Part shown: piece after piece, positions 1 to 17,213 of the stretch
Position numbering within the stretch: the stretch's first letter is position 1
How the letters are laid out: each line of letters starts with the position of its first letter
Assembly: GCA_037917685.1 (NCBI GenBank)
Contig: JAVCBU010000018.1
Location: 1 to 17,213, forward strand
From: Thermoproteota archaeon
GTDB lineage: Archaea; Korarchaeota; Korarchaeia; Korarchaeales; JAOZGB01
Length of the DNA: 17,213 bases
Reading direction: 5' to 3'
Notes under the pieces: model-generated
Databases searched by the model: none
Told to the model about the DNA's origin: nothing
Seen by the model: only the letters and a program-made list of their open reading frames with translations
Program-made: the position numbers and the translations under genes

Positions 1-116
1 CGCTGTTAGACTTGGCTCCTGGCAACTGAACCAGTTAAATAAATGTAGGGGTATCGGTGGAAATATCAGATACCCATCAGATACCCATTGGAGCCGTGCT
101 GTCGAACAGGATATTG

Positions 117-148
117 GTAATACTTTTATCTTTGTATTACAGTATTAT
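117..148 (+). promoter_or_regulatory. vapBC promoter (TATA-like TTTTAT at 124-129) bracketed by putative antitoxin operator half-sites
   Basis: GTAATAC (117-123) and GTATTAC (134-140) form an inverted pair around the TATA-like box, and a third near-copy GTATTAT lies at 142-148. The box is ~24 nt upstream of ATG 153, consistent with a leaderless transcript. Confidence 0.5.
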
Positions 149-152
149 CTTT

Positions 153-395
153 ATGGCTGTAATTAGTGTGAGGGTTGACCCTGAGACTAAGAGGAAGATG
201 GAGGCTTACAAGCATATTAACTGGAGCGAGGTTGTAAGGGAGGCTATAAGGGAGAGGCTACGTGCCGAGGAGAGGAGCCTTGTCAGGGCTGTCCTATTAA
301 ATGAGAAGCTTAGAAGGAAGGCTCCCAAGGGTTGGAGTAGCGTTGAGGTTGTAAGGTATTGGAGGGAGCATAGGTATGGAAAGCCTCGTGGTTGA
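153..395 (+). CDS. vapB: VapB-type ribbon-helix-helix antitoxin (80 aa; true start ATG 153, not GTG 57)
   Basis: MAVISVRVDPETKRKMEAYKHINWSEVVREAIRERL is a classic archaeal RHH antitoxin (beta strand plus INWSEVVR helix) with a C-terminal SSVEVVRYWRE motif. It overlaps the downstream PIN gene. Confidence 0.88.
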   Translation: MAVISVRVDPETKRKMEAYKHINWSEVVREAIRERLRAEERSLVRAVLLNEKLRRKAPKGWSSVEVVRYWREHRYGKPRG

Positions 396-798
396 CGCGT
401 CCATAGTTGTCAAATGGTATATTGTCGAGAAATACTCGGAGGAGGCGCTAAAGCTCAGGGATATGCATGTTAACGGTGAACTCCTACTTGTCGCCCCCAG
501 CTTGCTGCCATACGAGGTTCTCAACGCCCTAAAACATTCTAGCCTCTACTCCATGGACGAGCTCAAGCTGGCTGCAGAATCCCTGCTGAAATACGGCATA
601 CGCTTGGAGCCTCTAACCACCAGATATGCTGAGAAAAGCGTTGAACTAGCCGTGGAGAACGGGATCACAATATACGACGCGTCCTATATCGCTGTTGCGT
701 TAATAAAAGGTATAAGAATGGTGACAGCTGACAGTGGACTGATCGAAAAGCTCAGCCCGAAGGTCAGGGAAAGCATACTACACATAAGTGAGGTTTAA
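376..798 (+). CDS. vapC: VapC PIN-domain ribonuclease toxin
   Basis: PIN acidic motifs VVDASIVVKW, YEVLNAL, ITIYDASYIAVA and VTADSGL. It is 140 aa and overlaps vapB by 20 nt. Confidence 0.93.
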   Translation: MESLVVDASIVVKWYIVEKYSEEALKLRDMHVNGELLLVAPSLLPYEVLNALKHSSLYSMDELKLAAESLLKYGIRLEPLTTRYAEKSVELAVENGITIYDASYIAVALIKGIRMVTADSGLIEKLSPKVRESILHISEV

Positions 799-888
799 AG
801 CACTCATGAAGCCTCGCCAAGGAAATACACTCCTGGGCAGGAGAAGGCCGTGGGATGGTAAACCATTACGGACGCTGAAGGTGCGGAT

Positions 889-1044
889 GACCTACGCAGA
901 TGCTTATGCTTACATATATGAGCAGAACTCAAATGATAGGTATGGAAGTAGGGATACTGGGGGATGGGGTTTCTCTTTCCTAAGCATATAATAGCCGGAT
1001 GCGATAAATGTTTCGTCAGCTGTCCTTTCAGCTATGGAAGCTAG
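889..1044 (+). pseudogene. Possible decayed 3' fragment of a QueG/epoxyqueuosine-reductase-like Fe-S protein
   Basis: One frame reads DLRRCLCLHI*AELK**VWK*GYWGMGFLFPKHIIAGCDKCFVSCPFSYGS*. DxRRC followed by GCDxCxxxCPF resembles the QueG C-terminal Cys motifs. There are four internal stops and no start. Confidence 0.3.
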
Positions 1045-1598
1045 AGCATTCTAAGCGTTAATGAGACTGCAATGCCAAGGGCTAATAACAATAGTATTGA
1101 GAGAGCTGCTCTGCGCCTCGTCATCTCGTGAAGCTGGCCTATCCCCACCGTTATGATCAGCAGGGACCAGGGTATGGTGAGAACCATCAGCTGTGGTATA
1201 ACCATGGTTGTTAGGCTTGGCGTGGAACCATAGGCTACAGCCTTAAAAGTCTGCCTGTACCCGGCTTTTCCGCCCAGGATCTTAACCGCCATGTGGAGCA
1301 GCGCTGAAGCCGCTGCCATCGTGGTAATACCCATTATGACCGTGAATGGTATAACACCGACCAGGGCTATTGGCAGTGCGGTTGCATATCTTTCTCGTGG
1401 CGCGATTCCCCGGAGGAAGGGCTCCACCATGTAGTATCCGACGGATGAGAGGATGGCGGCTTCTATCGCCAACAGTACTGTAAGGTACTGGATCGCCTCC
1501 TTAAACCCCTCCTTCTCAATCATTTTAAAGGATTCATAGGCTTTCCCTGGCCTAAACATGCTGGGAAATCTTGCTAGAACCTGTTTTAAACCCATCAT
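1041..1598 (-). CDS. Yip1-family multi-pass membrane protein
   Basis: N-terminal 'MFRPGKAYESF', about five hydrophobic segments, and the Yip1 motifs 'LHMAVKILGGKAGYRQTFKAVAYGSTP' and 'WSLLIITVGIGQLHEMTRRRAA'. SD GAGGTG precedes ATG 1598 and overlaps the upstream stop. Confidence 0.85.
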   Translation of the reverse strand: MMGLKQVLARFPSMFRPGKAYESFKMIEKEGFKEAIQYLTVLLAIEAAILSSVGYYMVEPFLRGIAPRERYATALPIALVGVIPFTVIMGITTMAAASALLHMAVKILGGKAGYRQTFKAVAYGSTPSLTTMVIPQLMVLTIPWSLLIITVGIGQLHEMTRRRAALSILLLLALGIAVSLTLRML

Positions 1599-1606
1599 CT
1601 CCACCT

Positions 1607-4600
1607 CTACTCTTTAGTCACATATCTTAAGCAGTACCTCCACAGTGGAATCGTACAGGGCCTATGGCTTTCGAATATGTACCCTACTATGCCTACAAGC
1701 TCGTAGCCCTCCTTCCCCTCGGCATACATGTCTGTGGATTCCATGTGGTCCCTGGACTTCTCATTCCAAAAACTGTAGAGAGCTACAGTCCCAGGAGGCT
1801 TAGGCGCGTTGGTTGGGTAGATATACCCCACGATCCCGGTTAGTAGGTAGCCGTCTTCAGGTTCAGGGTTGGTAGACGAGTAGTAGTCCTCAGTGTCAGG
1901 ATTGTAGAAGCGGTATAGTGGAACTGTCCCTGGAGCCTCGTTATTAAATACGTAGCCTAATACCATGTCTCTGGAGTAGCCTTTAAGCGGTGAGAAGAGG
2001 AAAGTCCTCGTATAAAGGCATGGGTCCGTGGACACGATCTTTATAGACTTTTCACCTGCACTCACCATCATCCACAGGATTACAGCCTTATGCGCGAAGT
2101 CGCAGTTTACACAGTTAACTGATGGGATAAAGCCAAGGCTGTAGTCGGGTATGCCGTCAACCCCTCCCAGGTACATATCAGCGTCTCTAGCCACCTTGGT
2201 TAGATTAACATAGCCACCTGGGTCTGTCTCACTAGAATACCCCAGAAATCCCATGAGTACGTACGCCTGTAGGAAGTCCGTAACATCCCCGCTCACCAGA
2301 TAGTAGTGCCAGCTATATCCATCCGTGTTAGGAGTTTTACTGCCATAAAGATATATTTCAACACTGTTTGAGGGTGGCTCGGTGAATATGTAGCCTACAG
2401 GCTTCTCTTTAAGGAAGCCATTGATAAATACGATTGTTTCGCCGCAAGGGTCCAAGCTTAATGCGTGCTTCCACCTCACAACCTCCTTTGGACATCCCCA
2501 GCCAAACAATGCACATCCTACATCCTTAAAGAAGTCGCCTATTGCCTCGAAAAAGCTTGCGATGGCCTCTCCTACGGCCTCGAAGAAGTCTCCCATGCTC
2601 TCGAATATGTCTAGGAAGAGGTTTCCCAGATTTTTAAGCCATTCTAAAGGATCCGTGAATAGAGTTTTAACATCTAATACCCCAGCTATATCATTGATAA
2701 TCTGTCCAGCACTCATCAAGATACTCCCGGCAATATTGCCAAAGAATCCTGTGAAAAAGTCCATTCCTGGGACATAGCTCAACCCAACATTTATTATAGT
2801 TGTAATGCCTGATCCGACGGCTAAGACAAGATTACCTATTAGACCTACTACTCCTCCTAGCAAATTCCCCTCTTCAAAGTTATCAAGCCCCTCCATGAAC
2901 TGAAATATGCTGTATGCCAGGGCAAGCTTGTCTCTGATATTCTCTACATCACCTGGTGGGAGTTCGTAGCTGTCTGGAGCAATTGCGATACATAGTTTCG
3001 TCCAAAGGTGGACACCTTTACATGTTGTCTCCTTCCAGTACTTGTCGATTACATATTCAGGAACTGCGATCTGACCCAGGTTTGGCTCGTAAAAACCTAT
3101 GTAAGGCTCGCCCTCAACCATCCCATAGGATATTACGACAACCCAGTGGCCAGGACCATCAATCACATCCGTCGTGTCCGGTCTTGCTATGATATTAAGC
3201 ATTACAGGGATTCCCCTCCTTACCAGGCTTCTCACAAAGTTCAGGTCTGCATTATTGTATATTTGAGCGTCAAGCCCCTGCATCTGCGCATAGTCAGCTA
3301 TAGCCAAGGGGTCGGTTCCCATAACCACAACTGAGTCGTCCCTTATCCACTCGTCGACATCCCAAGGCATGACGTCCACCCCCCAGTACCTTAACACGTA
3401 AGCCAGGCATGTCGTTCCACACGCATTTTTCCTCTGGGTTGGAAGCCAGATGGAGTCTACTATGTAGTCTCTCATCACAAAATTCATTATGGAACCATTT
3501 TTCACATTGAGAATTATGCAATATCTGCCATGGATTCTAGAAAATCTCTCCTCTACCTTTTTACCCTTAAAGGTTTCGTGATAGCTGCCTTCATGTGTCC
3601 ATATACTCCACTCCCACTCATCGAATTTAACAGTGCTTTCCTCCTTACCCTCAAATATGTAGTCTGAACCGCCGTCTCCATAGGAGATTGTAAAGCTTGG
3701 GAGGGGTTGATCGTCGTTGCCCAGCTTCTTACTTCCCGACTCTCCAACGTAAACTGATCTTACAAGGAAGGATTCCCCTGCCTCATTATCCTTAACAGTG
3801 AGTCTTATATTATATCTTGCAGCTGGGGTTCCATTCACAGTGAAGGGTGTACTAGTGGGGTTATAAGTGTGTGTGATCGGGGTTGGTGGTGGATTATCCT
3901 TATTATATGTTTCTACTGTTCCGTCGCCAAAGTCGAAGGTCCATTCTACTATTTCACCATCGTCATCTCTACTTTTGTCTTCAATTTCTACTTCCAGGCC
4001 GTTCACCCTAACTGTGAAGTCTGGGTAGGGCATCTTATTCACATGTATGTTTGCAGCATCCCAGGGTTTAGCGGTTAACTCTCTTAGAAGCTTGCCCTCT
4101 GAGTCCCTGTAGTACTGGCCTCCACACTCCTTTCTACCTATTAGCATGAGGCTGTTCTCCTCCCATGGAATAGGGATTCTAGGCTCCTCAAACCATTTTC
4201 TAGCGGTTGACGGCTCGCGTCCGTGGGCGGCTTCAGGACTCAATTTTACGTTGATTGTGGTGGAATATTCGTTGTCGTTCTCGTTGGTTTCAGCGACAGC
4301 CCCGTCTGGGTCGGCCTTTGCTTTAAGGTCGTACGTGCCTGCATCCACGAAGAACAGGTATTTTTCAAGTGTAACCCTGGTGATTCCGCCCCCGCCTATC
4401 GAGTTAACTTCCTTCCTTACGCCTTCGCAGCAGCTCCATCTTAATTCGAGAATGAATGGTCCTGACTCTTCGCTACCGGTGTTCTCGATCGTAACTGTTA
4501 CGGTTATCGGCTGGAATATTGTGGGCTCCGGAGGGTCTATCGCTATACTTGTGACCTTAAGATTTACATCCGGCGTCCCGTATGAGGTGACAGCTCCTTG

Positions 4601-4657
4601 ACCGGTAACTGTAAGGAGGATGAGGATTGTTAAGGAGATTACCCTTTCAAAGTTCAT
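1607..4657 (-). CDS. Secreted multidomain protein: signal peptide, CARDB, PKD x2, C39-like cysteine peptidase, amphipathic helical region, DUF5648-like repeats
   Basis: Signal peptide (ISLTILILLTVTGQG). CARDB (ITVTVTIENTG...ADPDGAVAETNENDN). PKD (EIVEWTFDFGDG...IRLTVKDNEAG). C39-like motifs QRKNAC413GTTCL, GH504WVVV and FYE524PN. Gly-rich amphipathic stretch at aa ~596-723. C-terminal repeats PLYRFYN...DYYSSTN...GY...GIVGYIY. SD GGAGGTG upstream. Confidence 0.85.
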   Translation of the reverse strand: MNFERVISLTILILLTVTGQGAVTSYGTPDVNLKVTSIAIDPPEPTIFQPITVTVTIENTGSEESGPFILELRWSCCEGVRKEVNSIGGGGITRVTLEKYLFFVDAGTYDLKAKADPDGAVAETNENDNEYSTTINVKLSPEAAHGREPSTARKWFEEPRIPIPWEENSLMLIGRKECGGQYYRDSEGKLLRELTAKPWDAANIHVNKMPYPDFTVRVNGLEVEIEDKSRDDDGEIVEWTFDFGDGTVETYNKDNPPPTPITHTYNPTSTPFTVNGTPAARYNIRLTVKDNEAGESFLVRSVYVGESGSKKLGNDDQPLPSFTISYGDGGSDYIFEGKEESTVKFDEWEWSIWTHEGSYHETFKGKKVEERFSRIHGRYCIILNVKNGSIMNFVMRDYIVDSIWLPTQRKNACGTTCLAYVLRYWGVDVMPWDVDEWIRDDSVVVMGTDPLAIADYAQMQGLDAQIYNNADLNFVRSLVRRGIPVMLNIIARPDTTDVIDGPGHWVVVISYGMVEGEPYIGFYEPNLGQIAVPEYVIDKYWKETTCKGVHLWTKLCIAIAPDSYELPPGDVENIRDKLALAYSIFQFMEGLDNFEEGNLLGGVVGLIGNLVLAVGSGITTIINVGLSYVPGMDFFTGFFGNIAGSILMSAGQIINDIAGVLDVKTLFTDPLEWLKNLGNLFLDIFESMGDFFEAVGEAIASFFEAIGDFFKDVGCALFGWGCPKEVVRWKHALSLDPCGETIVFINGFLKEKPVGYIFTEPPSNSVEIYLYGSKTPNTDGYSWHYYLVSGDVTDFLQAYVLMGFLGYSSETDPGGYVNLTKVARDADMYLGGVDGIPDYSLGFIPSVNCVNCDFAHKAVILWMMVSAGEKSIKIVSTDPCLYTRTFLFSPLKGYSRDMVLGYVFNNEAPGTVPLYRFYNPDTEDYYSSTNPEPEDGYLLTGIVGYIYPTNAPKPPGTVALYSFWNEKSRDHMESTDMYAEGKEGYELVGIVGYIFESHRPCTIPLWRYCLRYVTKE

Positions 4658-6935
4658 CTTTCACACCTCCCACGTATAGCTTGTCGTCTTCGTCTATTAC
4701 TATTAGGATTTCATCCCTTCCATCGCCTTCGATGTCCCCGCATGCCAGCCCGTCGTAGGGTGTGAACCTCATGTACTGCACCTTCAGAAGGCCGAGGGAT
4801 GCACTGTAAATGTAGACTGCATCATCTTCGTCTATTGCGACCACTATCTCCTGTTTCTCGTCTCCCATAACATTTCCAAGGTATACTCCATCCTTCTTTG
4901 TGAACCTTGCAGTTATAACATTTATTTCCCTGAGACCTACGCCAGGGACATACTCATACACATATATCTCACTGTCATCCCCGTTTCTGTTTCTTAGCAT
5001 AACTATCTCGGCTTTCTCATCTCCTATAACGTCGCCTACCAGAAAGCCGTCGTAGGCGGAGCCCTTGTGATCCTCGCCGTACGTGTAACGGCAGCCTTCA
5101 AACTCCCAGCCTAGGACAGACTTATCAATATTTATGGTGCCTTCACCTGTGAGTTTCAGGTTTCCGGAGCTGTCTTTTACAAGGCTGTATATGTAGATCT
5201 TCTTATCCTCGTCAACCGCTATAAGAATCTCATTTTCACCGTCACCATCTATGTCCCCAACACCTATCCCGTCGTACTTCGTAAACCTTACGTCGAACTC
5301 CCCGATCTTAAGGCCGTATCTATTTTCTCCTTGGTATGCGGTGTAGACCCGGAGCTTCCCCCCGTCGTCGTTGGCAACCACTATAAGCTCTTCTCCAGGC
5401 CAGTCCTCGGCTACCTCTCCAACTATGAGCCTGTCGTGCCATGTGTAGAATGCTTCAAAGGTACACAGCAGCTCTCCAGCGTAGTTGTAGACGTAGAACA
5501 GGCCGTTGTCCCCGTCCGCATCCTCGTCTATCGTTATGATGATCTCATCTCCTGGGAGGTCTGGGAATATGTCTCCCGAAGCAATGTCGTCGTAGTGGGT
5601 GAACCTGGCTTCGAACACGCTGCTCCACCCGCAGCCGCACGGCACCCTCGTAATATTCAGTATCAGGGTGAACTCGCCGTGATTGCCGTCATGATCGCAT
5701 ATCTCCACCTTCAGCATGGCTGAGGAGCAGTTTCCGTAGGGCCCCAAACTGTATGATAGCTCCCTCCTGTACACCATCGGCTCCCGGATTGTAATCTCAT
5801 CTATCACTTCCTCATGCTCGGCTCCATCCCTGGATCTTGAAGCCTCAAAAACCTTTATAGTGTAGAGCCCTGAGCCGCCCTCATTGTCCCTCACCACGAT
5901 GTCGAGGTCAACCCTCTGCATGCTACTAATCCTCTTAACTATCCTCTCGACGGGGCCGGACGGTATCCCTGGAGCAGGCTTCCCAGATATCTCGAACCTT
6001 TCAATGCTTACTGTTGGCTTAACGGTCTCGCTTGGCCGGAAGATAAACAATGCCCTCGCCTCTGAGAAGCCTACGTCGAGTGTGATACTCTCAGGGCTAC
6101 ATGGTATCGAGGGCCTGACAACCCAAGTACCATGTAGAACCTGGGTAAATCTGCAGATGAAAATGTTGTAAGGCTCGCCTTCACGGTACTCGGCTGTTAA
6201 GCTTCTAGACTCCAAAACGTTGCCTCTGGCGTCAATCCTCTCAGCAACAACTACACACTCGTAGGTGGATAGGCATTTTGGCACATACTCCACTATAACT
6301 TTAATAGAGCTGTAGGCTGGGGCAGGCGTCGTTGTAGGCGGCGTCGTGGTCGGCGGTGGGGTAGTTGACGGTGGAGGAGTGGTGGTGGGAATCGGCGGGG
6401 CTGAAACCTTAATGTGGCAGGCATGCCAGTAGGGAGGGCCCTCCCTATATATCGGTGTCCCAGCCACCGCTGTAGGGATGAACACGATGTAGGAGGGCCA
6501 TAAAATCCACTCCCCCTCCTCGTTCAGTACAACCTCGCTTGCAATGAGGGTAGCCGTCTCACCAGGATTCAGACTTCCAACTTCCTGCCTGTAAATAGGC
6601 TTTCTCTCCCCGGAAGGCGTCTCAGCCATCAGGACAAGCCCCCCTTGACCAAATGAAAACTCCTTCTCCTCCCCCACATATGTTATCTTAAAGGAGACCC
6701 TAAGCACCGTGGACGTGGTGACGACAGGGTCGAAACTTTCAACTTTGAAATCTGTAAGCTGGAGGTTATCATCTGATACATCTGGACCCTCATAGTGGCA
6801 GATGACGTATGGCGGCTGAAAACCCCTAACCGCAGACTTGAACAGTGTAAGAAGAGTCAGAACAGAGAGTAGAAGATAGACATCTCTTCTATTAAGACTC
6901 AAGCCAACCCTGTTCACAGTCAAAACCTTCCCCAC
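4647..6935 (-). CDS. Secreted/surface protein with Ig-like domains, Pro/Thr linker and six C-terminal FG-GAP/VCBS-like beta-propeller repeats
   Basis: N-terminal hydrophobic signal/anchor (RRDVYLLLSVLTLLTLFKS), a PT linker, and six repeats of consensus RFTxYDGxxxGD(I/V)xGDxxxEI(L/V)IxxDED.K.Y.Y carrying DxxGDG Ca2+-loops. GGTGA SD (6939-6943) precedes the GTG start. The gene overlaps the next one by 11 nt. Confidence 0.85.
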   Translation of the reverse strand: MGKVLTVNRVGLSLNRRDVYLLLSVLTLLTLFKSAVRGFQPPYVICHYEGPDVSDDNLQLTDFKVESFDPVVTTSTVLRVSFKITYVGEEKEFSFGQGGLVLMAETPSGERKPIYRQEVGSLNPGETATLIASEVVLNEEGEWILWPSYIVFIPTAVAGTPIYREGPPYWHACHIKVSAPPIPTTTPPPSTTPPPTTTPPTTTPAPAYSSIKVIVEYVPKCLSTYECVVVAERIDARGNVLESRSLTAEYREGEPYNIFICRFTQVLHGTWVVRPSIPCSPESITLDVGFSEARALFIFRPSETVKPTVSIERFEISGKPAPGIPSGPVERIVKRISSMQRVDLDIVVRDNEGGSGLYTIKVFEASRSRDGAEHEEVIDEITIREPMVYRRELSYSLGPYGNCSSAMLKVEICDHDGNHGEFTLILNITRVPCGCGWSSVFEARFTHYDDIASGDIFPDLPGDEIIITIDEDADGDNGLFYVYNYAGELLCTFEAFYTWHDRLIVGEVAEDWPGEELIVVANDDGGKLRVYTAYQGENRYGLKIGEFDVRFTKYDGIGVGDIDGDGENEILIAVDEDKKIYIYSLVKDSSGNLKLTGEGTINIDKSVLGWEFEGCRYTYGEDHKGSAYDGFLVGDVIGDEKAEIVMLRNRNGDDSEIYVYEYVPGVGLREINVITARFTKKDGVYLGNVMGDEKQEIVVAIDEDDAVYIYSASLGLLKVQYMRFTPYDGLACGDIEGDGRDEILIVIDEDDKLYVGGVKDEL
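4650..5620 (-). repeat. Six protein-level FG-GAP-like repeats (~45-65 aa)
   Basis: RFTHYDDIASGDIFPD, FYTWHDRLIVGEVAED, RFTKYDGIGVGDIDGD, RYTY..AYDGFLVGDVIGD, RFTKKDGVYLGNVMGD, RFTPYDGLACGDIEGD. Confidence 0.85.
6315..6402 (-). repeat. Low-complexity Pro/Thr linker
   Basis: APPIPTTTPPPSTTPPPTTTPPTTTPAPA, typical of glycosylated spacers in extracellular proteins. Confidence 0.85.
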
Positions 6936-6955
6936 TATTCACCTAATATCCATAA

Positions 6956-7180
6956 AAAAACTTTTGGTTCAATCTATATGATGAAGAGGTAATAGCTGTT
7001 ACTGGTACAGGCTGGCTTGGTGGAGGAGCTAACTGTGCATTGATAATTCGTCCATCAATTTTGCCCGACGCTTGGTTCATCGTTGTAGAAAAAGGCATAG
7101 AAGTTAGGGAAATTATTACCATATCAAGACTAAAATTCTCTCAAAAGTTAATCTGTATACTTAGGAATTTGATACTATGA
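6956..7180 (+). pseudogene. 5'-truncated fragment of an archaeal pyruvate-kinase alpha/beta (PK_C)-domain protein (COG1751-like)
   Basis: A start-less frame reads ...YDEEVIAVTGTGWLGGGANCALIIRPSILPDAWFIVVEKGIEVREIITISR..., resembling the recalled family C-terminus 'EEVIAIAGTG.GADTA.VI.PA...F....VREII.KPR'. It is preceded by TAA at 6953-6955 and is absent from the ORF track. Confidence 0.6.
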
Positions 7181-7203
7181 AGCCTTTAAGACTGAGGAAC
7201 AAA

Positions 7204-7232
7204 GATCCCCCTACTTAAAGGGGAGTGTCAAC
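7204..7232 (+). mobile_element. Possible orphan right-end hairpin of an IS200/IS605 (TnpB-associated) element
   Basis: GATCCCCCTACTTAAAGGGGAGTGTCAAC: a CCCCT/AGGGG stem followed by GTGTCAA, resembling IS605/IS1341-group right ends (..ATCCCC-N-GGGGAG..GTCAA). No transposase or tnpB is visible. Confidence 0.35.
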
Positions 7233-7346
7233 AGCCTATTCTACTGCTTATTTTGTCTTCTATCCATGTTTATACTTACACCAGTACTGAATAGTGTATA
7301 CTCAAACTTTTTAACCGTTCCAACACACACTACAGAAGACAATATA

Positions 7347-7919
7347 ATGTCGTGGAAGACTGTTGTGGTTCTGATTTTAATATTAATAGCCGGTTTAAAT
7401 GGCTGGAGATATATCCATAGTGAGAGTAGAAGTAGTCTGGATATTCCCCCTGAGTTTCAAGAGAGATACGTTCGATTGAGTCGATGGCTTGATGGAAAAA
7501 TCGAAGAGTGGAAACCAGAAGAATATGAGCCGATGATTTTCTGCGCTCAACATATTGTTGCCAGCGAGCAGTCTGTAACCCTGACAAGCGAAGAACTGGA
7601 TGTTCCCTACTTAGAAATGCTTAAGGAAGTAGGAGTGGATTGTATAAGATTGTCTATATATCCCTACAACTATGAGAAGTATAAGCAGAGGTAAGGGAAT
7701 TTAATAAGGGAGATCAGGAGAAACGACTTAAAACTTATGGTTGCCTACATGGTTGGAGACCTGCCAAAAGGAGAGATTTCATCTTTTGAGGAGTATAAGG
7801 AGATTGAGGAAGCTTTCACAAGGGAGTTTGTCGGTAAGCACAAGCCGGATTACTATGCGATTGTTACAGAGCCGATAACAATGGAGGGATACATTCCGCG
7901 CGGTCTAGTATGCTCATAG
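7347..7919 (+). pseudogene. Exported glycoside-hydrolase-like (TIM-barrel) gene with an in-frame TAA and 3' truncation
   Basis: ORFs 7266-7694 and 7737-7919 are in the same frame. Read through, they give MSWKTVVVLILILIAG (signal) ... MLKEVGVDCIRLSIYPYNYEKYKQR*GNLIREIRRNDLKLMVAY ... KHKPDYYAIVTEPITM, resembling clan GH-A strands up to the (N/T)EP acid/base motif. The gene ends soon after. A TATA-like TTTTAA lies near 7309. Confidence 0.6.
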
Positions 7920-7921
7920 GC

Positions 7922-8977
7922 TCATGGGCCCTCGCTTATGCTGGAGAATCTTAAACTTGTTCCTGAGCTCCGAAAGTTTATTCCCCGTGTTTTTAGCATT
8001 TCTTTTAGTCTTTCGTCTTCTTTGTAGTGTGCTTTGCATGGGTGTCCCTCAGCTATCAAGGCTTTCCTGTCATGTGGGAGTGCTATGAGGGACCACAGTG
8101 TCCCGAGTTTTATCGCTTCTGCGTGGGAGCAGACGTGTCCCTTATGGTCTGATAGTATTTTCTTTGCTAGTTTGGAGTTGACTTCCCCGTTGTTGAGGTT
8201 TATGAGTTCTGTTATGCGTTTGTATCTTGTTGCTGATGTAGGTGGCCTTTTTCTAACGTTTTCCGCGTCTTTCATCTCTGGATGTAGGAAGTGGTTGGTT
8301 GCGACTAGGAAGCCCTTTTTGGGTTTTTCTCTTACTCTTACCCCTTGTGAAGAAGCTTCGACGACAGCCATGTCTTCGGTTTCGTCAACCAGTAGGTAAT
8401 TGTTTCCCGTGGAGAATTGTACATTTAAAAGAAGTTTGGTTGCTTCGGCGACGCTGGCGCACTTGTCTAGGACTGCTCGTACAGCTATGAACCAGTTTAC
8501 CCCGGGCTTTGATTCTCTGGTGGGAACGGTAGACATGGCTATGGCTAATCCAGCCTCGTTGACACCATCTTCTTTGCCGATAAATATGGTCGAGTTGCCC
8601 AAGCTCCAATATGCATCTCTGGGCATTGTCAGGCGGGTTTCTGCGTACTTCTTATATGAGTAGTAAAAGTCGTAGTTTCTGCCAAGAATGGGGTAGGGTG
8701 AGGAAGCTGCGAAGATGCTGCAGGAGTTATGTTCCTCTGTGCCTAATGTTAGAAAGAAGGCTTTCAAATCTTCATATGAGATTTTGCAGCCTTCAGCGAA
8801 TCCTTGGAGTTCTTCCAGGATTTCGGGGAAAAACCGTTTAACTTCCGCTTCACACTCCTTTACAAACTCGCCTATTTCCTCAGAAACCTTTGGCGGTTGA
8901 TAACCAGCCCGCTTCATGATACTGCCGTACTTAAAACCCATCTCATAGTAGGACCCGGATAATCGGTGGTGATGCAT
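7922..8977 (-). CDS. Peptidase C45 / acyl-CoA:6-APA acyltransferase-like Ntn hydrolase (autoproteolytic)
   Basis: N-terminal pro-region LSGSYYEMGFKYG...EELQGFAEG, nucleophile motif SCSIF, then ILGRNYDF, DGVNEAGLAIA, ATNHF, SATRY and GHPC. Confidence 0.88.
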   Translation of the reverse strand: MHHHRLSGSYYEMGFKYGSIMKRAGYQPPKVSEEIGEFVKECEAEVKRFFPEILEELQGFAEGCKISYEDLKAFFLTLGTEEHNSCSIFAASSPYPILGRNYDFYYSYKKYAETRLTMPRDAYWSLGNSTIFIGKEDGVNEAGLAIAMSTVPTRESKPGVNWFIAVRAVLDKCASVAEATKLLLNVQFSTGNNYLLVDETEDMAVVEASSQGVRVREKPKKGFLVATNHFLHPEMKDAENVRKRPPTSATRYKRITELINLNNGEVNSKLAKKILSDHKGHVCSHAEAIKLGTLWSLIALPHDRKALIAEGHPCKAHYKEDERLKEMLKTRGINFRSSGTSLRFSSISEGP

Positions 8978-9199
8978 CCTTTACACTTAGGAAATATCTT
9001 GAGGATGGATTATTTAATCTTGCGTGAAACAAAGTTTTACATAAATCTGGCTGAAGCTCCATTTGCGTGTACAAAGATGGTTACATTTTCTGGTGGGCAG
9101 ATTAGCGGATGGAGGGTTGGTAGGGGTACCTATGGGTGCTGCTATTCCGGGTTTAGTTTAGTGTTTAGCTTATTTAAGCCTTTGTGTTATCATAATTTA

Positions 9200-9221
9200 A
9201 ATTTTAGGCTTGCCTAGAATT
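9200..9221 (+). promoter_or_regulatory. DtxR/IdeR/SirR-type metal-responsive operator at the feoB promoter
   Basis: Imperfect palindrome AATTTTAGGCTTGCCTAGAATT (TTAGG-N4-CCTA core) between the TATA-like TTTAAA (9196-9201) and feoB ATG 9226. Confidence 0.7.
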
Positions 9222-9225
9222 GTTG

Positions 9226-11154
9226 ATGGCTGGTAAGATAAGGGTTGCCCTGGCTGGCAATGCTAACGTTGGTAAGTCTGTCCTGTTTAACGAGCTTACA
9301 GGTCTTCATCAGCACATTGGAAACTGGCCTGGTAAGACTGTTGAGAGGGCTGAGGGTACTCTCCACTACCGGGGCTACGAGATTGATGTTATCGACCTGC
9401 CAGGTATATACTCGCTTTCAACCTTTAGTATTGAGGAGATCATTTCTAGGGAGTATATTGCTCTTGAAAGGCCCGATGTTGTTGTTAACGTGGTTGATGC
9501 CTCTAACCTGGAGAGGAATCTCGTTTTTACGATTCAACTCTTAGAGCTAGAGGCCCCAATGGTTATCGCATTGAACCAGATGGACATGGCTGGAAAGATG
9601 GGGATTAATATCGATGTTAGGAGGCTTAGGGAAAGGCTTGGCATCCCCGTCGTCCCCATGGTTGCTGTTAAGGGTGTGGGGATAAAAGAGCTGCTTGACG
9701 CTATCATAGATGTCTTTGAGGGGAGGGTTAGTCTTAAGCCCTTGAAGGTTAGGTATGGGAGGGAGGTTGAAAGGTACGTTGAAAGGCTCACTAGGATGGT
9801 TGAGCCCCTAGGCTTGCCGTATCCTGCTAGGTGGGTGGCCGTTAAGCTGTTAGAGGAGGACGGGGAGATAACGAGGCTTGTTTCCTCGAGGGATAGGTCT
9901 ATTGTGGAGTATGCGTCTAGGTGTAGCAGGGAGATTGAGGGGATCCATGGGGAGCCCTGTCCACTGGTCATCTCTTTCGAAAGGTGTAATCTTGCCGGGT
10001 TGATTGCAAGGGAAGTTCAAACAATTAGGAGGCCTGTCAAGCCTCCCTTCTCTGAGAGGCTTCACATGGTTACGACCCACCCCTTGTTGGGCTATATTAT
10101 AATGCTGGCCGTGCTGTTTTCATCTTTCTACGCTGTTTTTATGGTGGGCGGGGTTATCGCAGGTGTGATAGAGGACTATTATGAGAGTTTCTCCCTACTT
10201 TACACGCCTTCAAGCACGCTTGGCAAGCTGCTGTGGGAGGGGGTTGTTGAGGGGTTTATCGCGGGCCTTACCGTTGTACTCCCCTATGTGGCCCCGTTCT
10301 ACGTAATTCTTAGCCTTCTCGAGGACTCAGGCTATCTTGCAAGGGTTGCCTTCCTTATGGACTCTGCAATGCATAAAATAGGCCTCCATGGGAAGGCTTT
10401 TATACCGCTTATGCTTGGCTATGGATGCAATGTCCCGGCGTGCCTGGGCTGCCGTATCATGGAGACTGAGAGGGAGAGGCTTATAGCAGGCTTCGTTGTG
10501 ACTCTTGTGCCCTGCGCTGCGAGGACGGCTGTTATACTTGGGCTTGTCGGAAGGTATATTGGGGTGGGCTGGGCACTGTCGCTTTACATTATTGACCTGC
10601 TCGTGGTTTTCCTTCTCGGTAGGCTGGCGTTCAAAGTCGCCCCTGGCGAGCCTGTAGGCCTTATAATGGAGATGCCGCCGTATAGGCTTCCCTCCCTGAA
10701 GGTTGTTCTGTGGCAGTCGTGGGTTAGGGTTAAGGGTTTTATGGTTGAGGCTTTCCCCCTCATAGTTGCTGGTAGCCTTGCAGTTAAGATTCTTGACGTG
10801 ACAGGGGTTATGAAGGCTGTGTCTGAAGCGTTCTCACCGGTGACCTCCGGCTGGCTGGGCCTGCCAATGGAGGCTGGCGCAACGCTGATATTTGGTATTC
10901 TCAGGAAGGAGCTTACGCTTGCAATGCTGGCAGCCTTGCTTGGTACATCTGATTTTTCCGTTGTGCTTTCCCCCGTCCAAATGTACGTTTACTCGCTTGT
11001 AGTTATGCTGTATGTCCCCTGCATTGCAACCATAGCAGCCTGTGTTAGGGAGTATGGGTGGAGGAAGGCTCTGATCATGGCGGGAGTTGAGATTATGTTT
11101 GCGGTTTTTATCGGTGGCATAGTTTTCAGGCTTCTCAGGGTGGCGCTTGGATAG
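9226..11154 (+). CDS. feoB: Ferrous iron transport protein B
   Basis: G1 GNANVGKS, G2 NWPGKTVE, G3 DLPGIYSL and G4 NQMD. Membrane domain motifs [37 protein letters not shown] and [10 protein letters not shown]. The probable start is ATG 9226. Confidence 0.97.
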
Positions 11155-11350
11155 CCATTCTTAGCAAATTTTTATAAACATAAAGTTTCATAGGATTCTA
11201 AATGTAAAACACCCATTTTTGTATTCACAAAATTACAGTTAAAATCTGTTGAAATCATACAGAAATATCATATACAACTGTGAAAAACCAATTTATACTA
11301 GTATTTTCATGAAATAATGTTTAGGTGCTGGTAGAACAGCCTAAAGAGAC

Positions 11351-11365
11351 CGAAAAGCTTTAAAT
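11351..11365 (+). promoter_or_regulatory. Archaeal BRE + TATA promoter for the small RHH gene
   Basis: CGAAAAGC-TTTAAAT ends ~25 nt upstream of ATG 11390, consistent with a leaderless transcript. Confidence 0.65.
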
Positions 11366-11389
11366 TTTCCATGTAGAGAAATATGCGAA

Positions 11390-11554
11390 ATGCCGGTAAT
11401 AAAGGGAACGTTTAAGGAGGCTTTGATATCAACAAGGGTTACGAGGAAGGTGGCTGACCTAGTTGAGGATTTGGCCGATGAGGAGGGGCTAACGGTCTCG
11501 GAATGGATGAGAAACCTGATAATTAAGGAGTTAAAGGAGAGAAAGCTCCTCTAG
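11390..11554 (+). CDS. Small ribbon-helix-helix (CopG/Arc-like) DNA-binding protein, 54 aa (missed by the ORF track)
   Basis: MPVIKGTFKEALISTRVTRKVADLVEDLADEEGLTVSEWMRNLIIKELKERKLL: beta strand ISTRV, helix A, G-L-T-V-S-E turn and helix B. It has a canonical promoter and host-like codon usage. Confidence 0.85.
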   Translation: MPVIKGTFKEALISTRVTRKVADLVEDLADEEGLTVSEWMRNLIIKELKERKLL

Positions 11555-11586
11555 AACGGTCAACACTGACTGTGGCTACGTTGATG

Positions 11587-12495
11587 TTAAACGCTCGACA
11601 ATAATGACTTGGCTGTCTCTGCTGCACTAGGGGTTTGGATTTTATATTCCTTACTGAAATAGTTGAAAATATTCGAGAGGTCTCTCTTTAAAAGAGTGAA
11701 AGCCTGATCGTAGCTAACTGGGACGGCCTGGGGGAAATCTATGAAGTATAGGTCTCCTTCCCCTGAGATTAGAATATTGTACTCGTTTAGGTCTCCATGG
11801 ATGAATCCGGCTTTAACAACTAGGGTTTCAACGTCCTGCAGTATTCTGTCCAGTGCGTCCCTGGGGTTTTGGAGCCGGGTGTCCGCAATCCTCGGTGCAG
11901 GCATCCCTGAGTAGCTGGAACTGACAAACTCCATTACGACAGCGTGTCTATTGATTGAAATCGGCTTTGGAACTGTGACTCCTGCTTTATAGGCTGCCTC
12001 CATGGCTTTCATTTCAATTTGGGCCTTAGCCCTTGGAATATCTATTTTTGAATCTTCAAGGTTCAATTCTTCCCCCCTAAGCTTTACCGCTGCATAAGAT
12101 AAGCTTCTCCTTATGTGTTTGAACTCTACACTCCAGTAGCGGTGGAACTTTACAACCACATCTCCCTGCTTGCTTGAGGCTAGAACTATTTCAGCTTCCT
12201 TGCCCTCTCCTATTGTATCAGCAACTTCCTCTATTACTCCATGTCTCTTAAAGTCCCAAAGCGCAAGCATATCGAAACCTCTCTCTAGGAGCATTGCCGC
12301 ATACTCATTATAGAAGCCTATAAAGTTGTATTTAATGAGCCTGGCTGACTTTAGAAATCTAAGCCTACTTTCAATCTCCTTCTCCGGGAAAGGGAGCTTA
12401 TCAACAATACTATTGAGCGGAACCCATTCGTAAACAGTCCTTAAACCCTCTACAACCCTGAGGATCGCTACATCCCTTTCATCAAGAGGTCTCAT
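11587..12495 (-). CDS. rio2: RIO2-type atypical Ser/Thr kinase/ATPase (N-terminal winged helix)
   Basis: wHTH N-terminus (DVAILRVVE...YEWVP...GFDMLAL), P-loop IGEGKEAEI, VVVKFHR, NRHAVVMEF, catalytic IHGDLNEYNIL and FIDFPQ. TATA TTTTAA lies at 12526-12521. Confidence 0.9.
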   Translation of the reverse strand: MRPLDERDVAILRVVEGLRTVYEWVPLNSIVDKLPFPEKEIESRLRFLKSARLIKYNFIGFYNEYAAMLLERGFDMLALWDFKRHGVIEEVADTIGEGKEAEIVLASSKQGDVVVKFHRYWSVEFKHIRRSLSYAAVKLRGEELNLEDSKIDIPRAKAQIEMKAMEAAYKAGVTVPKPISINRHAVVMEFVSSSYSGMPAPRIADTRLQNPRDALDRILQDVETLVVKAGFIHGDLNEYNILISGEGDLYFIDFPQAVPVSYDQAFTLLKRDLSNIFNYFSKEYKIQTPSAAETAKSLLSSV

Positions 12496-12569
12496 ACATA
12501 AAGCTTGGAATCGGTTAGTGTTAAAAGTTCAGTCTAAGATAGACACCCTTTTCAATCATCCATAATTTT

Positions 12570-13150
12570 AGGTGAGCCTTGGATCCCGGTTGTAGCAAAG
12601 CTTCTATTCCAAGCTTTTACACGTTTCTAGAGCATCTCTGCCCATAAACTGTGTAATAAATATTAGTTTCTCAGGCTTTACATCGCTCTTTTTCATAGAG
12701 CTTTCCACTCCCGAAGAGTTCCCCCAACTCCCGACTCCCTAACATGGGATTTTATTTCAACTAGCAAATGTTTTACCCTTAACAGTTATGTCAACCTCAA
12801 CCGTCCCTGGACACCCAGACACGAAACCCTCACTGTCGTAGACACTCCTCGCAACACTAAGATGCCTACCTGCTGTCTCACCTAGCCCTAAATGATTCTC
12901 ACTTATAATTTACATTTGATACCTAAGCAGTTATTAGAAACCCTAACTATTTGAGACCCCTATTAAAATCTTCCCTCAGCCTTCTAATCTCTACACCATG
13001 CCCCTATAAGATTTACCTGCTCTTGTAAGGCTCTGCTCTGTTGTGGTCTATTAGAATCCTTCCTTGCTCCCCGGAACTTTTAGCATTTGTGTGTTGAAGC
13101 CCTCTCTATACTTCTTTATTTCTTAAATTATCTCTTTCATTTCATCATTG
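12570..13150 (-). pseudogene. Decayed DUF3782/DUF1626-type coiled-coil + PD-(D/E)XK nuclease-like gene
   Basis: Frameshifted fragments on the minus strand: EII*EIKKYREGFN, VEIRRLREDFNRG, YDSEGFVSGCPGTVEVDITVKG, HLLVEIKSHVRESGV, KLYEK, VKPEKLIFITQFMGRDALETCK and LGIEAL. These fit the crenarchaeal family with D...EIK catalytic residues. Confidence 0.75.
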
Positions 13151-13243
13151 ATGTGAGGTATTCTGAAGAGTAATGGCTTAATAGTTTAGTAGTTTTGTTG
13201 GGGGATGGAGGTTATTAAATGTGAGGGGTCTTGGAGGGCTTCC

Positions 13244-14644
13244 TTATTCTTTGGCTGTGTAGAAGGTTTTATATGCTAGGTAGCAGCTGTATACGTCGGC
13301 TTTGCTTGTAAGCTCGTAGGGGGAGTGCATCCCCATTACGCCGCAGCCTGCGTCTACTACGTCCATTCCTAGTCTTGCTATGAATACTGCTATTGTCCCC
13401 CCGCCACCCAGCTCTTCGTCAGCCTTGCTTACTAGTAGGCCTGGTTGCCATGGGACATTATTTTCGTCAAGTATTCTTCTGATCCATGCCATATACTCGG
13501 CGTGGGCTTCGGCTCCCCTGTACTTGCCAGCCATACTTCCAACCTTGCTTACTATTATTCCACATCCCATTCTACCGGCGTTAGCCTTATCGTATAGGTC
13601 TTTGTGCATTGGGTGGACAACTGTGTCAACGTCTGCTGAGATCGCCTTTGAGTTTACGAAGCATTTTATTAGGTAGTCCTCTCTGAACTCTCCCTTTCTC
13701 AAATATATTATCCTTGTTAGGAAGTCGTGGAGGAACAGTGACTGAGCTGAGGTGTTTGTTTCGCTTCCTATTTCCTCCTTGTCGACAACCCACATTAGAC
13801 ATGTATATTCAGGATTATCGACGTCAAGTATCGCCCTAAGAGATGTGAAGACTGAAACCCTATCGTCCTGCCCGTAGCCTGCAACCATGGAGCCGTCAAG
13901 TCCGACGTCCATAGCCTTTAACGCTGGAACTACCTCTAGGTCAGCGCTTAAAAGGTCTTCCTCGGATATGCCGTATTTATCCTTAAGCATTTTTAGAACG
14001 GCAGCCTTAAACTTCTCCTTTTCGTCTTCTTTCTCCAGGGGGATATTGCCAAGGATTATTTTCAGCTCTTCTCCCTTCACGGCCTGGCTTGCCTTCCTAT
14101 CCTGAAATCTTTTCCTGCTGAGATGAGGTAGTAGATCCGGTATGAGTAGAACGGGTTCGTTGTTCTCGCCGATTCTGATATATACCTTTCCACCGTCCTT
14201 AAGGGCTACAACCCCGTGTAGGGCAAGTGGAATGTTCACCCATTGGTATCTTACCACACCCCCATACCAGCCTGTCTGTAGAAGGGAGACCTTTGCGTCC
14301 GGGTCATCCATTATGGGCAGTGGTTTAGGATCAAGCCTAGGAGCGTCACCATGCGATGCTACAAGACGGATTCCCTGCTCCTCACCCTTTTTACCTATGA
14401 CTGCCAGGAGGACCATCTTATCCTTGTAAACCATGAAAACCTTGTCCCCAGACTCCAGTTTTTCAGCCTCATCCATGTTTTTAAAGCCGTTCTTCACGGC
14501 TGCCTCAACAACGTAGTCTACAACCTCTCTTTCGGTCTTAGCCCTGTCCAGAAAGTCTTTATACTCTTCAGCGAAGCTGTACACCTTGTCTCTTTCAGGG
14601 CCCTTTAAAGCCTCCCAGGCAAGCTTTCTCTCATACTTCTCCAT
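13244..14644 (-). CDS. M18 family metallo-aminopeptidase (ApeA/aspartyl aminopeptidase-like)
   Basis: Motifs AKTERE, SHGDAPRLD, WYGGVVRYQW, DLLPHL, YGQDDR, DKEEIGS, ISADV, GGGTI and GMHSPYE. The metal ligands H, D, EE, D and H are intact. Confidence 0.93.
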   Translation of the reverse strand: MEKYERKLAWEALKGPERDKVYSFAEEYKDFLDRAKTEREVVDYVVEAAVKNGFKNMDEAEKLESGDKVFMVYKDKMVLLAVIGKKGEEQGIRLVASHGDAPRLDPKPLPIMDDPDAKVSLLQTGWYGGVVRYQWVNIPLALHGVVALKDGGKVYIRIGENNEPVLLIPDLLPHLSRKRFQDRKASQAVKGEELKIILGNIPLEKEDEKEKFKAAVLKMLKDKYGISEEDLLSADLEVVPALKAMDVGLDGSMVAGYGQDDRVSVFTSLRAILDVDNPEYTCLMWVVDKEEIGSETNTSAQSLFLHDFLTRIIYLRKGEFREDYLIKCFVNSKAISADVDTVVHPMHKDLYDKANAGRMGCGIIVSKVGSMAGKYRGAEAHAEYMAWIRRILDENNVPWQPGLLVSKADEELGGGGTIAVFIARLGMDVVDAGCGVMGMHSPYELTSKADVYSCYLAYKTFYTAKE

Positions 14645-14858
14645 TTCTTGTTATCCCATCTATGAAGAGCTGGAGACAATATTAATTTTAGTGGTCTGGT
14701 TTAGACGCTGAGCTTAAGATAAACCATGATCATCAAGGCGGAGGATGTCGAAATCAGGGATCTAAGGGCTATTGCATGGCTGTTGTTTTTAGGCGTATGA
14801 TGTGGGGTGCAAATGTCGTCGACATTACTAGGAGCCTACCAGTCTGCATGTTCACAGT

Positions 14859-15278: not shown

Positions 15279-15351
15279 ACAATGGTGCCAGCTGACAACA
15301 GGTATAAAGTTTCAGTAAGGTTAAAATGAAACATGCAAGATAGAATAGGGG
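15279..15351. promoter_or_regulatory. Compact divergent promoter pair
   Basis: TTTATA on the minus strand (15308-15303) lies ~25 nt before ATG 15278. TTAAAA on the plus strand (15321-15326) lies ~25 nt before ATG 15352. Confidence 0.5.
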
Positions 15352-16107: not shown

Positions 16108-16108
16108 C

Positions 16109-16438: not shown

Positions 16439-16450
16439 AAAGCCATACTT

Positions 16451-16473
16451 TCAAATTTAACCTTTAAATTTGA
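16451..16473. promoter_or_regulatory. Perfect 10-bp inverted repeat (possible operator) over the tRNA-binding gene promoter
   Basis: TCAAATTTAA-CCT-TTAAATTTGA lies 13-35 nt upstream of ATG 16438 and immediately after the stop of the small membrane ORF. Confidence 0.45.
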
Positions 16474-17082: not shown

Positions 17083-17100
17083 CCTGTATCAATGTTAAAT

Positions 17101-17211: not shown

Positions 17212-17213
17212 AC

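Follow-up and report, generated by a model that had tools for sequence, protein, structure and literature searches.

What does a cell do with an exported propeller protein, a large protein in which a C39-like cysteine peptidase and a DUF5648 domain flank a hydrophobic hairpin, and a small polytopic membrane protein, when the three are encoded end to end? The question is raised by a stretch of 17,213 nucleotides (the window, meaning the whole stretch of DNA that was analyzed: positions 1 to 17,213 of the forward strand of contig JAVCBU010000018.1, GenBank assembly GCA_037917685.1) from an archaeon deposited as Thermoproteota and placed in the Korarchaeota by the GTDB lineage. Three genes, here called A, B and C, form a cassette on its minus strand:

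4647-6935, minus strand: gene A (P0001), an open reading frame (ORF) with a translation of 762 residues, a putatively exported propeller protein.
1607-4657, minus strand: gene B (P0002), 1016 residues, described from its ORF, Pfam matches, an AlphaFold2 model and family alignments.
1041-1604, minus strand: gene C (P0003), 187 residues when read from GTG, a Yip1-family polytopic membrane protein.

On the sequence comparisons reported here, the cassette is an undescribed cell-surface module, composed of familiar domains in an unfamiliar fixed combination. The combination is fixed across lineages and absent from most close relatives of its carriers, and therefore marks a working unit. As an explanation of what the unit does we favor, with a rough probability of 45%, a membrane-anchored complex of a lectin and a protease that would act on glycan-bearing material outside the cell. 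This preference is based on the link between A and B, the predicted topology, the way in which the third gene tracks B, and the function of the DUF5648 domain. The first-pass annotation of this DNA knew of no described system with this layout, and none was found by a literature search, the scope of which excluded most subscription journals.

The three genes overlap or abut on one strand, as the first-pass annotation had described. A and B share 11 nt (4647-4657), the ATG of B (4657-4655) lying inside the end of A, whose TGA stop is at 4649-4647, and a GGAGGTG at 4670-4664 stands 6 nt upstream of that ATG. At the second junction a Shine-Dalgarno-like GAGGTGG (1607-1601) ahead of C overlaps the TAG stop of B (1609-1607), and alignment with homologues makes an ATG at 1598 or 1595 more likely to be the true start of C than the GTG at 1604.

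Loci related to the cassette came from six genome contigs (labeled Caldisericales, Altiarchaeota, Anaerolineales, Brockarchaeota for two, and Thermoproteota) and from ten metagenome contigs; L036, which carries stand-alone C39 peptidases only, was dropped from the counts, and L032, which gave the same tblastn statistics as L024, was counted once. Further loci are a second pair on contig C7 of the window's own genome (L011) and L042 in one other genome of the window's phylum. By tblastn with the three window proteins, B is immediately preceded by a homologue of A in the same orientation in all 14 loci in which the upstream side is visible (the window, L011, L022, L023, L024, L026, L027, L029, L030, L031, L033, L035, L037 and L042), a count that includes short metagenome contigs and near-duplicates such as the near-identical L035 and L037; in L025, L028 and L034 the upstream side is off the contig. 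An arrangement that recurs in 14 of 14 testable loci is not due to chance. Furthermore, an FG-GAP propeller is inserted into the C-terminal domain of B itself in 4 of 23 members, at about residue 778 (P0009, L022) or about residue 935 (P0008, P0012). Together, the adjacency and the fusions support the earlier proposal that the three genes form a functional unit, and the possibility that the genes never co-occur elsewhere, which had been named as the observation that would overturn it, is clearly contradicted in both archaea and bacteria. Besides the window's own archaeal phylum, carriers occur in Caldisericota, Chloroflexota, Altiarchaeota, Brockarchaeota and Thermoproteota. Bacteria (Caldisericales, Anaerolineales) are thus among them, and the module is not a specifically archaeal one, as had been envisaged.

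The family is nevertheless small. When residues 400-1016 of B were compared with 5.8 billion proteins by word index, and the best 8000 candidates were scored, 13 clusters were obtained; a profile run exhaustively against 1.84 billion representatives gave about 16 full-length clusters at 50% identity, below which the list turns to multi-CARDB and multi-DUF5648 repeat proteins. Within the window's phylum the cassette was detected in 2 of 43 genomes; among relatives, the figure was 4 of 41 for a Brockarchaeota carrier and 1 of 41 for the Caldisericales one. A search of 41 genomes with full-length B detected only the window's genome, four others being matched through the PKD domain alone; as the genomes are incomplete, non-detection among relatives is no proof of absence. 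The scarcity of carriers among relatives points to an accessory, transferred cassette, and by these comparisons the cassette is rare, accessory and horizontally spread.

The phylogeny of B has two deep clades, each with 100/100 support. The first, with a short helical region, contains the C7 copy from the window's own genome, the copy from the other genome of the window's phylum and those from Brockarchaeota, and the second, with a long helical region, divides into three groups: two Altiarchaeota proteins, four proteins including that of the window, and eleven among which are those of Caldisericales and Anaerolineales. The tree of the A propeller shows the same clades with a single exception, namely that the A of C7 groups with the window A (100/100) while its B sits in the short clade, and the matrix of BLAST scores agrees. 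This mismatch suggests that A and B have recombined, or that A has been homogenized, within the window's genome. The C7 pair itself lies at a contig end (L011:436-5063, minus strand), and its A is 59% identical to the window A.

Protein B appears to be the center of the cassette, and its parts are as follows:

4262-4561, minus strand: CARDB domain, residues 33-132 (Pfam 4.9e-13; VIA match 3idu with Z 15.2, root-mean-square deviation (rmsd) 1.8 and 107 aligned residues).
4058-4168, minus strand: conserved LMxIGR segment, residues 164-200, with Gly174 and Arg175 nearly invariant; in the model it packs against the peptidase.
3458-4045, minus strand: PKD domain and a second immunoglobulin (Ig)-like domain, residues 205-400, missing from most aligned members.
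2963-3451, minus strand: C39-like papain-fold core, residues 403-565 (Peptidase_C39_2, 1.7e-10), with Gln408, Cys413 and His504.
2504-2947, minus strand: helical region, residues 571-718, with a hydrophobic hairpin (599-626 and 633-660) at 2678-2863.
2492-2515, minus strand: Cys-x6-Cys motif (GC.WFG.GCP), residues 715-722, with Cys715 and Cys722 present in 23 of 23 members.
1610-2485, minus strand: all-beta C-terminal domain with DUF5648 repeats, residues 725-1016 (7.6e-08; predicted local distance difference test (pLDDT) about 80-90).

Pfam reproduced the domain calls of the first-pass annotation for all three proteins (FG-GAP-like in A; CARDB, PKD, C39-like and DUF5648 in B; Yip1 in C), with scores in B of 49.6 bits for CARDB, 42.1 for Peptidase_C39_2 (PF13529, clan CA; cut-off 24), 33.1 for DUF5648 (PF18885; cut-off 25) and 25.7 for PKD. 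Among 23 B members, DUF5648 and Peptidase_C39_2 are each detected in 22, CARDB in 20, PKD in five and the inserted FG-GAP propeller in four. The AlphaFold2 model of B (mean pLDDT 74.2, predicted template modeling score 0.43) is confident for the CARDB, PKD/Ig, peptidase and C-terminal beta domains. Family alignments revealed that the predicted catalytic residues Cys413 and His504 are invariant and the upstream oxyanion Gln408 nearly invariant; in the 23-row alignment Cys413 scored as nearly invariant because one row is a fragment that starts past it. Position 524, which belongs to an invariant Y-x-P motif and is a candidate third catalytic residue, is Glu, Asp or Asn in most rows and Cys in P0007. 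A VIA structure search with the B model, covering 48,161 chains, placed the peptidase closest to 3erv (Z 14.0, rmsd 2.9, 159 aligned residues) and to the double-glycine protease 6mpz (Z 13.9, rmsd 2.4, 136 aligned residues), followed by PCAT1 (8vp3, Z 13.6) and ComA (5xe8, Z 13.4) and, lower, by PeiR (8z4h, Z 12.8), staphopain C (Z 12.7) and the CdiA-CT toxin (8ssm, Z 12.7). The alignments to C39-like chains begin at B model residues 164-176, which indicates that the LMxIGR segment is part of the peptidase fold and that the PKD/Ig block at 205-400 is an insertion particular to the window and Altiarchaeota clades. The peptidase of B looks active. In the Thermoproteota-labeled locus L026 (8001-10297), B is present as two ORFs of 593 and 178 residues overlapping by about 20 nt, an arrangement that may be due to a frameshift or sequencing error or may be a true division of the gene.

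The first-pass annotation had described both large proteins as carrying an N-terminal signal sequence and no C-terminal anchor, and a Kyte-Doolittle scan, from which the signal sequences of A and B were judged, agrees that each has an N-terminal hydrophobic segment and a C-terminus that is not hydrophobic, with the caveat that B has a strong internal hydrophobic segment at residues 596-629. The model places helices at 571-595, 599-626, 633-660 and 670-718 with low confidence (pLDDT 38-58); the second is strongly hydrophobic (mean 1.84), the third moderately so (0.97, with two Asp), and the fourth is long, amphipathic and acidic with a net charge of -7. A hydrophobic segment between peptidase and DUF5648 occurs in every B member examined (Kyte-Doolittle up to 1.9-2.65), with acidic flanks on both sides, and the length of the helical region is 162-175 residues in one major B clade and 103-111 in the other. 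Beyond the invariant Cys715 and Cys722, the C-terminal domain of B harbors a cysteine pair at 1001/1009 in 22 of 22 members and one at 738/880 in most. In one preprint, DUF5648 is described as a three-bladed propeller that takes part in glycan recognition by Bacteroidales toxins and GH70 enzymes, according to its authors (bioRxiv 10.1101/2025.01.06.631476), and in the part available of another preprint it is a candidate wall-binding domain of an endolysin (bioRxiv 10.64898/2026.04.26.720912); by analogy, glycan binding by the DUF5648 domain of B is plausible. Other searches with B added little: Foldseek with the whole model against the PDB and BFVD gave tandem Ig/FN3-like matches only, from which nothing could be learned about peptidase, helices or DUF5648, ESM Atlas had no usable match for residues 560-1016, and a PDB search with the family profile gave only CARDB apart from a weak match of the helical region to a tape-measure protein (8v3w_B, E 0.0067), which was taken as compositional.

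Protein A contributes the following:

6831-6890, minus strand: N-terminal hydrophobic helix, residues 16-35, a signal peptide or signal anchor by hydropathy and model.
6405-6809, minus strand: beta-sandwich, residues 43-177, variable across the family, with strands at pLDDT about 74-89.
5631-5639, minus strand: Cys-Gly-Cys at the propeller entry, residues 433-435, with Cys433 and Cys435 invariant in 11 of 11 aligned A proteins.
4668-5627, minus strand: six-bladed beta-propeller with FG-GAP-like acidic loops, residues 437-756.

In the AlphaFold2 model of A (mean pLDDT 72.4), the beta-sandwich is followed by a Pro/Thr linker, a poorly modeled stretch and an Ig-like domain (residues 308-429), and the propeller is built of 24 strands as six blades of four, mostly at pLDDT 80-90. 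The window A matches Pfam FG-GAP_3 only marginally (28.7 bits, cut-off 26.9), and homologues reach 3.3e-08 and 7.2e-10. The VIA matches of the propeller are six-bladed propellers with Z from 22.0 to 15.9, the best being 9oee (UmbA, the lectin of a Streptomyces umbrella toxin; Z 22.0, rmsd 3.2, 283 aligned residues), followed within 1-3 Z units by NHL (Z 21.0), phytase and fucose-lectin propellers. Because unrelated NHL propellers score within 1 Z of 9oee, the comparison establishes no more than the fold of the A propeller. The canonical FG-GAP propeller of the integrin-alpha type has seven blades with Ca-binding DxDxDG loops, whereas the model of A has six, and exact DxDxDG loops occur only at residues 470 and 561; as modeled, A is like an FG-GAP propeller but is not of the canonical seven-bladed type.

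Conservation across the A family is limited to the propeller and the Cys-Gly-Cys motif. The N-terminal parts differ by lineage, with six CARDB domains in Caldisericales, CBM96 in the Brockarchaeota type (on the A homologues of L026, L027 and L033) and a Cys-rich part in Altiarchaeota. About 47 clusters share the A propeller at E < 1e-29, with diverse N-domains and labels that include Bipolaricaulaceae and Jordarchaeales, and relatives of the propeller bear PPC, beta-helix and CARDB domains. The N-domain of the window A is 32% identical to the N-terminus of a large protein encoded on contig C10 of the same genome (L012:2916-7109, minus strand, truncated at its 5' end by the edge of the contig). 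This protein, of at least 1397 residues, consists in order of a domain like A residues 45-178, CARDB, Ig domains, an FG-GAP propeller and a C-terminal, gingipain-like Peptidase_C25 domain; here, too, an A-type propeller and a cysteine peptidase are paired. The next gene encodes a PKD protein that has a transmembrane segment at its C-terminus.

Is the third gene a fixed part of the cassette? C is a clear Yip1 protein (PF04893, 57.7 bits against a cut-off of 28.6, 1.7e-15) with four or five hydrophobic segments, and a small polytopic membrane protein is encoded downstream of B in 12 of the 14 loci in which that side is visible. However, Yip1 is not the constant component that the first-pass annotation took it for. 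Six loci have Yip1 (the window, L022, L024, L028, L034 and L031, the last with only its first 60 residues on the contig and recognized by eye against L034), six have instead a conserved 144-residue protein with four hydrophobic helices and no Pfam family (L025, L026, L027, L033, L037 and L042, the last cut by the contig end), and two have neither: in L023 a converging RNase H-like gene follows B, and in L011 there is no such ORF in the 435 bp to the contig end. No relation between Yip1 and the four-helix protein was detectable by hhalign (probability 0.08%), and the two are therefore treated as unrelated; a holin-like match of one four-helix member was sub-threshold (16.8 bits against 28.4) and was not used. 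No homologue of the four-helix protein is present in the assembly of the window's genome, which is 95% complete. The type of third gene follows the helical region of B, Yip1 accompanying the long form and the four-helix protein the short form, and among five Yip1 loci compared, similarity of Yip1 ranks like similarity of B. This tracking suggests that the third protein meets the hairpin in the membrane.

The proposed analogy of C with YknW of Bacillus, which acts in resistance to the SDP toxin, proved weak. Both are polytopic membrane proteins of the Yip1 family, but the only addition made by NCBIfam was a match of C to YknW_fam (NF052650) far below the equivalog cut-off (23.5 bits against 110), and YknW, as presented in the accessible part of its description, works as an accessory of an ATP-binding cassette (ABC) transporter and a membrane fusion protein (PMC4887032), whereas no gene for either is present in the window, nor was an ABC gene found among the scanned neighbors of the cassette in L022-L027.

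How, then, might the three proteins work together? In the membrane-anchored lectin and protease complex that we favor, B would be the core, its N-terminal signal sending it through the Sec pathway and its central hydrophobic hairpin remaining in the producer's membrane as an anchor. Both flanks would lie outside, one with the CARDB and PKD domains and the C39-like Cys-His peptidase, the other with a disulfide-stabilized, glycan-binding DUF5648 domain. A would be exported and would dock on B through its six-bladed, acidic-loop propeller, while its variable N-domains (Ig-like here, CARDB or CBM96 elsewhere) would add lineage-specific binding, and C, or the four-helix protein in the other clade, would associate with the hairpin in the membrane. 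The complex would bind glycan-decorated extracellular material and cleave its peptide part, the target being the envelope or matrix of neighboring cells or polymeric substrates. Retention of the hairpin in the producer's membrane is the simplest outcome for an export signal followed by a strongly hydrophobic segment, and predicts anchoring of B more simply than the secreted effector that had been suggested earlier. An extracytoplasmic location of both flanks would fit the conserved cysteine pairs, the acidic flanks of the hydrophobic segment, and the extracellular character of CARDB, PKD, DUF5648 and FG-GAP domains. Contact between A and B is suggested by their constant adjacency, overlapping frames and matching trees, and by two independent insertions of a propeller into B.

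Several observations weigh against this explanation. Since the helical region is modeled at such low pLDDT, the assignment of a hairpin rests on hydropathy, and its second helix (633-660) is, as noted, moderately hydrophobic and contains two Asp. The short clade has a single stretch of about 46 residues here, and were this to cross the membrane only once, DUF5648 would end up in the cytoplasm. L022 and L024 keep a separate A beside a propeller-bearing B, so that the fusion adds to A rather than replacing it, and the combination of a window-type A with a short-clade B in C7 shows that A and B are not strictly co-adapted. Lastly, because only two clades exist, the association of third-gene type with hairpin type cannot be separated from phylogeny, and the third gene is missing from two loci. 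Such a complex could serve antagonism, feeding or self-maturation.

A first alternative, which we regard as doubtful, is an antagonism module in which B would be released, DUF5648 and A would bind target glycans, the hairpin with its amphipathic helices would insert into the target membrane and/or the peptidase would cut wall peptides of the target, and the producer would be shielded by the small membrane protein, which would bind the hairpin in the producer's membrane. Immunity genes typically show the pattern seen for the third gene, whose place is taken in some loci by one for an unrelated small polytopic membrane protein, and here the type of third gene tracks the hairpin type; the patchy distribution across domains of life, the toxin-antitoxin (TA) genes beside several loci and the toxin-like character of the helical region would also fit. 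In pore-forming colicins a hydrophobic hairpin is likewise buried, and immunity to them is conferred by small polytopic membrane proteins. B resembles the colicins in having a hydrophobic hairpin among amphipathic helices and a multi-span membrane protein gene directly downstream, but differs from them in its Sec-type signal, and the model of its helical region is of low confidence. An immunity gene would, moreover, be expected always to be present, whereas the third gene is found in only 12 of 14 loci; one of the two loci without it is C7, in the same genome as the window, and the assembly holds no four-helix homologue. A strongly hydrophobic segment behind a Sec-type signal is expected to stop transfer in the producer's membrane rather than be released, and the catalytic and helical parts of B are conserved, not polymorphic. 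No family of PADLOC-DB 2.0 matched P0001, P0002, P0003 or P0016 (E <= 0.01), and no toxin-domain family was matched in Pfam or NCBIfam.

Structural and domain likenesses to known weapons argue for antagonism as well, though each comes with differences. The top propeller match is the umbrella-toxin lectin UmbA (9oee), a lectin propeller that serves a multi-protein extracellular complex; it is tied with NHL propellers, as stated above, and no homologues of UmbB or UmbC were seen. The peptidase matches include the pseudomurein endoisopeptidase PeiR (8z4h) and the CdiA-CT toxin (8ssm), and Peptidase_C39_2 is mentioned in papers on phage endolysins. B shares with endolysins and PeiR the combination of a catalytic domain and a C-terminal binding domain, a GH25 endolysin with a C-terminal DUF5648 being described in the part available of one preprint (bioRxiv 10.64898/2026.04.26.720912), but has in addition a signal peptide, a CARDB domain, a membrane hairpin, an obligatory propeller partner gene and a membrane-protein gene, and no phage context was seen around the cassette. 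DUF5648 is also the receptor-binding end of the Bacteroidales pore-forming toxins BSAP-2 and BSAP-3, for which, in the available text, the authors propose glycan (O-antigen) recognition (bioRxiv 10.1101/2025.01.06.631476). The BSAPs resemble B in carrying a C-terminal DUF5648 on a protein with a membrane-active part, but that part is a MACPF pore-forming domain and they have no propeller partner, whereas B has a peptidase and a helical hairpin. Against a role of C in immunity, Yip1 in toxin resistance is, in the accessible portions of two reports (PMC4887032, PMC8174769), an accessory of ABC and membrane fusion protein pumps, which are absent here.

A second alternative, which we consider unlikely, is that the cassette serves nutrient acquisition only, as a surface-tethered protease with carbohydrate-binding helpers that would degrade glycoproteins or detrital cell wall for peptide fermentation. 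Its architecture is that of the anchored complex that we favor, and the role alone differs. The CBM96 N-domains on A homologues in three loci would suit such a role, as would the PPC, beta-helix and CARDB domains on relatives of the A propeller, which are typical of secreted hydrolases; the same genome encodes the large CARDB/FG-GAP/Peptidase_C25 surface protein on C10, the window encodes an M18 aminopeptidase, and the DNA was detected in two sediment metagenomes, possibly its source, and in no listed RNA dataset. However, the distribution of the cassette is unusually rare and patchy for a general feeding enzyme, and a dedicated small membrane partner would be unexpected for a simple ectoprotease. 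To our knowledge, the C39-like peptidases characterized so far are specific processing enzymes, not bulk proteases.

Self-directed maturation is a third alternative and in our judgment quite improbable. Here the C39-like domain would process the cell's own surface proteins, for example A at its Cys-Gly-Cys or B at G-x-G-C, and the cassette would be an adhesin with a dedicated protease in the manner of LapA and LapG. Cysteine and glycine motifs at domain boundaries are invariant (Cys433 and Cys435 of A in 11/11, Cys715 and Cys722 of B in 23/23), and in the model of B the conserved segment 164-200 is packed onto the peptidase; neither motif, however, is a Gly-Gly site, and the cysteines are equally well explained as disulfides. 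The closest structures of the peptidase include the double-glycine leader peptidases 6mpz, 8vp3 and 5xe8. B shares with these C39 peptidases of PCAT/ComA-type ABC exporters (PF03412 type), and with the putative stand-alone C39-like peptidase 3erv, the papain-like fold and the Gln, Cys and His residues, but differs from the exporter peptidases in having no fused or adjacent ABC transporter, in a predicted extracytoplasmic location behind a putative signal peptide, and in being split by the PKD/Ig insertion in the window clade and followed by a hairpin and a lectin-like domain. No gene for a leader-peptide substrate was noticed beside the cassette, where small ORFs were not screened for leader motifs. 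Finally, the idea that three generic surface and membrane proteins are merely adjacent, which would be natural for domains as common in surface proteins as these, is very improbable in view of the adjacency of A and B wherever it could be seen (14 of 14 loci, at least six named lineages), the overlapping frames, the mirrored trees and the propellers fused into B.

The surroundings of the cassette were also inspected. The first-pass annotation had placed a TA pair and gene remnants at its sides. One member of the pair is supported by Pfam (6.1e-11):

376-798, plus strand: VapC-like PIN gene, overlapping a 112-residue ORF at 57-395.

The overlapping upstream ORF has no Pfam match, and the two are probably a VapBC-type pair. 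TA genes stand beside the cassette elsewhere too, namely AbiEi/AbiEii in L025 and PIN in L026. Three Brockarchaeota-type loci (L026, L027 and L037) have the cassette at the same chromosomal place, just upstream of the gene for ribosomal protein L15e and a LeuA-like gene, and a PIN toxin pair is inserted in some Brockarchaeota-type loci and not in others. The supposed remnants (ORFs 788-991, 6943-7122 and 7266-7694) neither match a Pfam family nor have a paralogue elsewhere in the genome. Elsewhere in the window, between the genes for a RIO kinase and the M18 aminopeptidase, 748 bp (12496-13243) contain no ORF of at least 35 residues in any frame. This stretch is C-rich on the plus strand, with a GC skew of about -0.3, and has no direct repeats and no tRNA or Rfam match, the tRNA and Rfam scans of the whole window having given no matches; it could be a decayed gene or an RNA of a new type.

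What the cassette would mean depends on its role. We think it unlikely that it is a self-contained weapon moving between archaea and bacteria, a lectin-guided cysteine peptidase with a membrane-inserting hairpin that would be aimed at foreign cell-surface glycans by its propeller and neutralized in the producer, through capture of the hairpin, by one or the other of two unrelated small membrane proteins. If it were, it would represent a new class of inter-domain antagonism system and would give prokaryotic Yip1 its first toxin/immunity role without a transporter. The cassette offers a small, defined system in which the roles of extracytoplasmic C39-like peptidases and of DUF5648 in uncultured archaea, and those of prokaryotic Yip1 proteins outside ABC pumps, may be learned, and it may show whether modules for the cell surface or for antagonism pass between archaea and bacteria.

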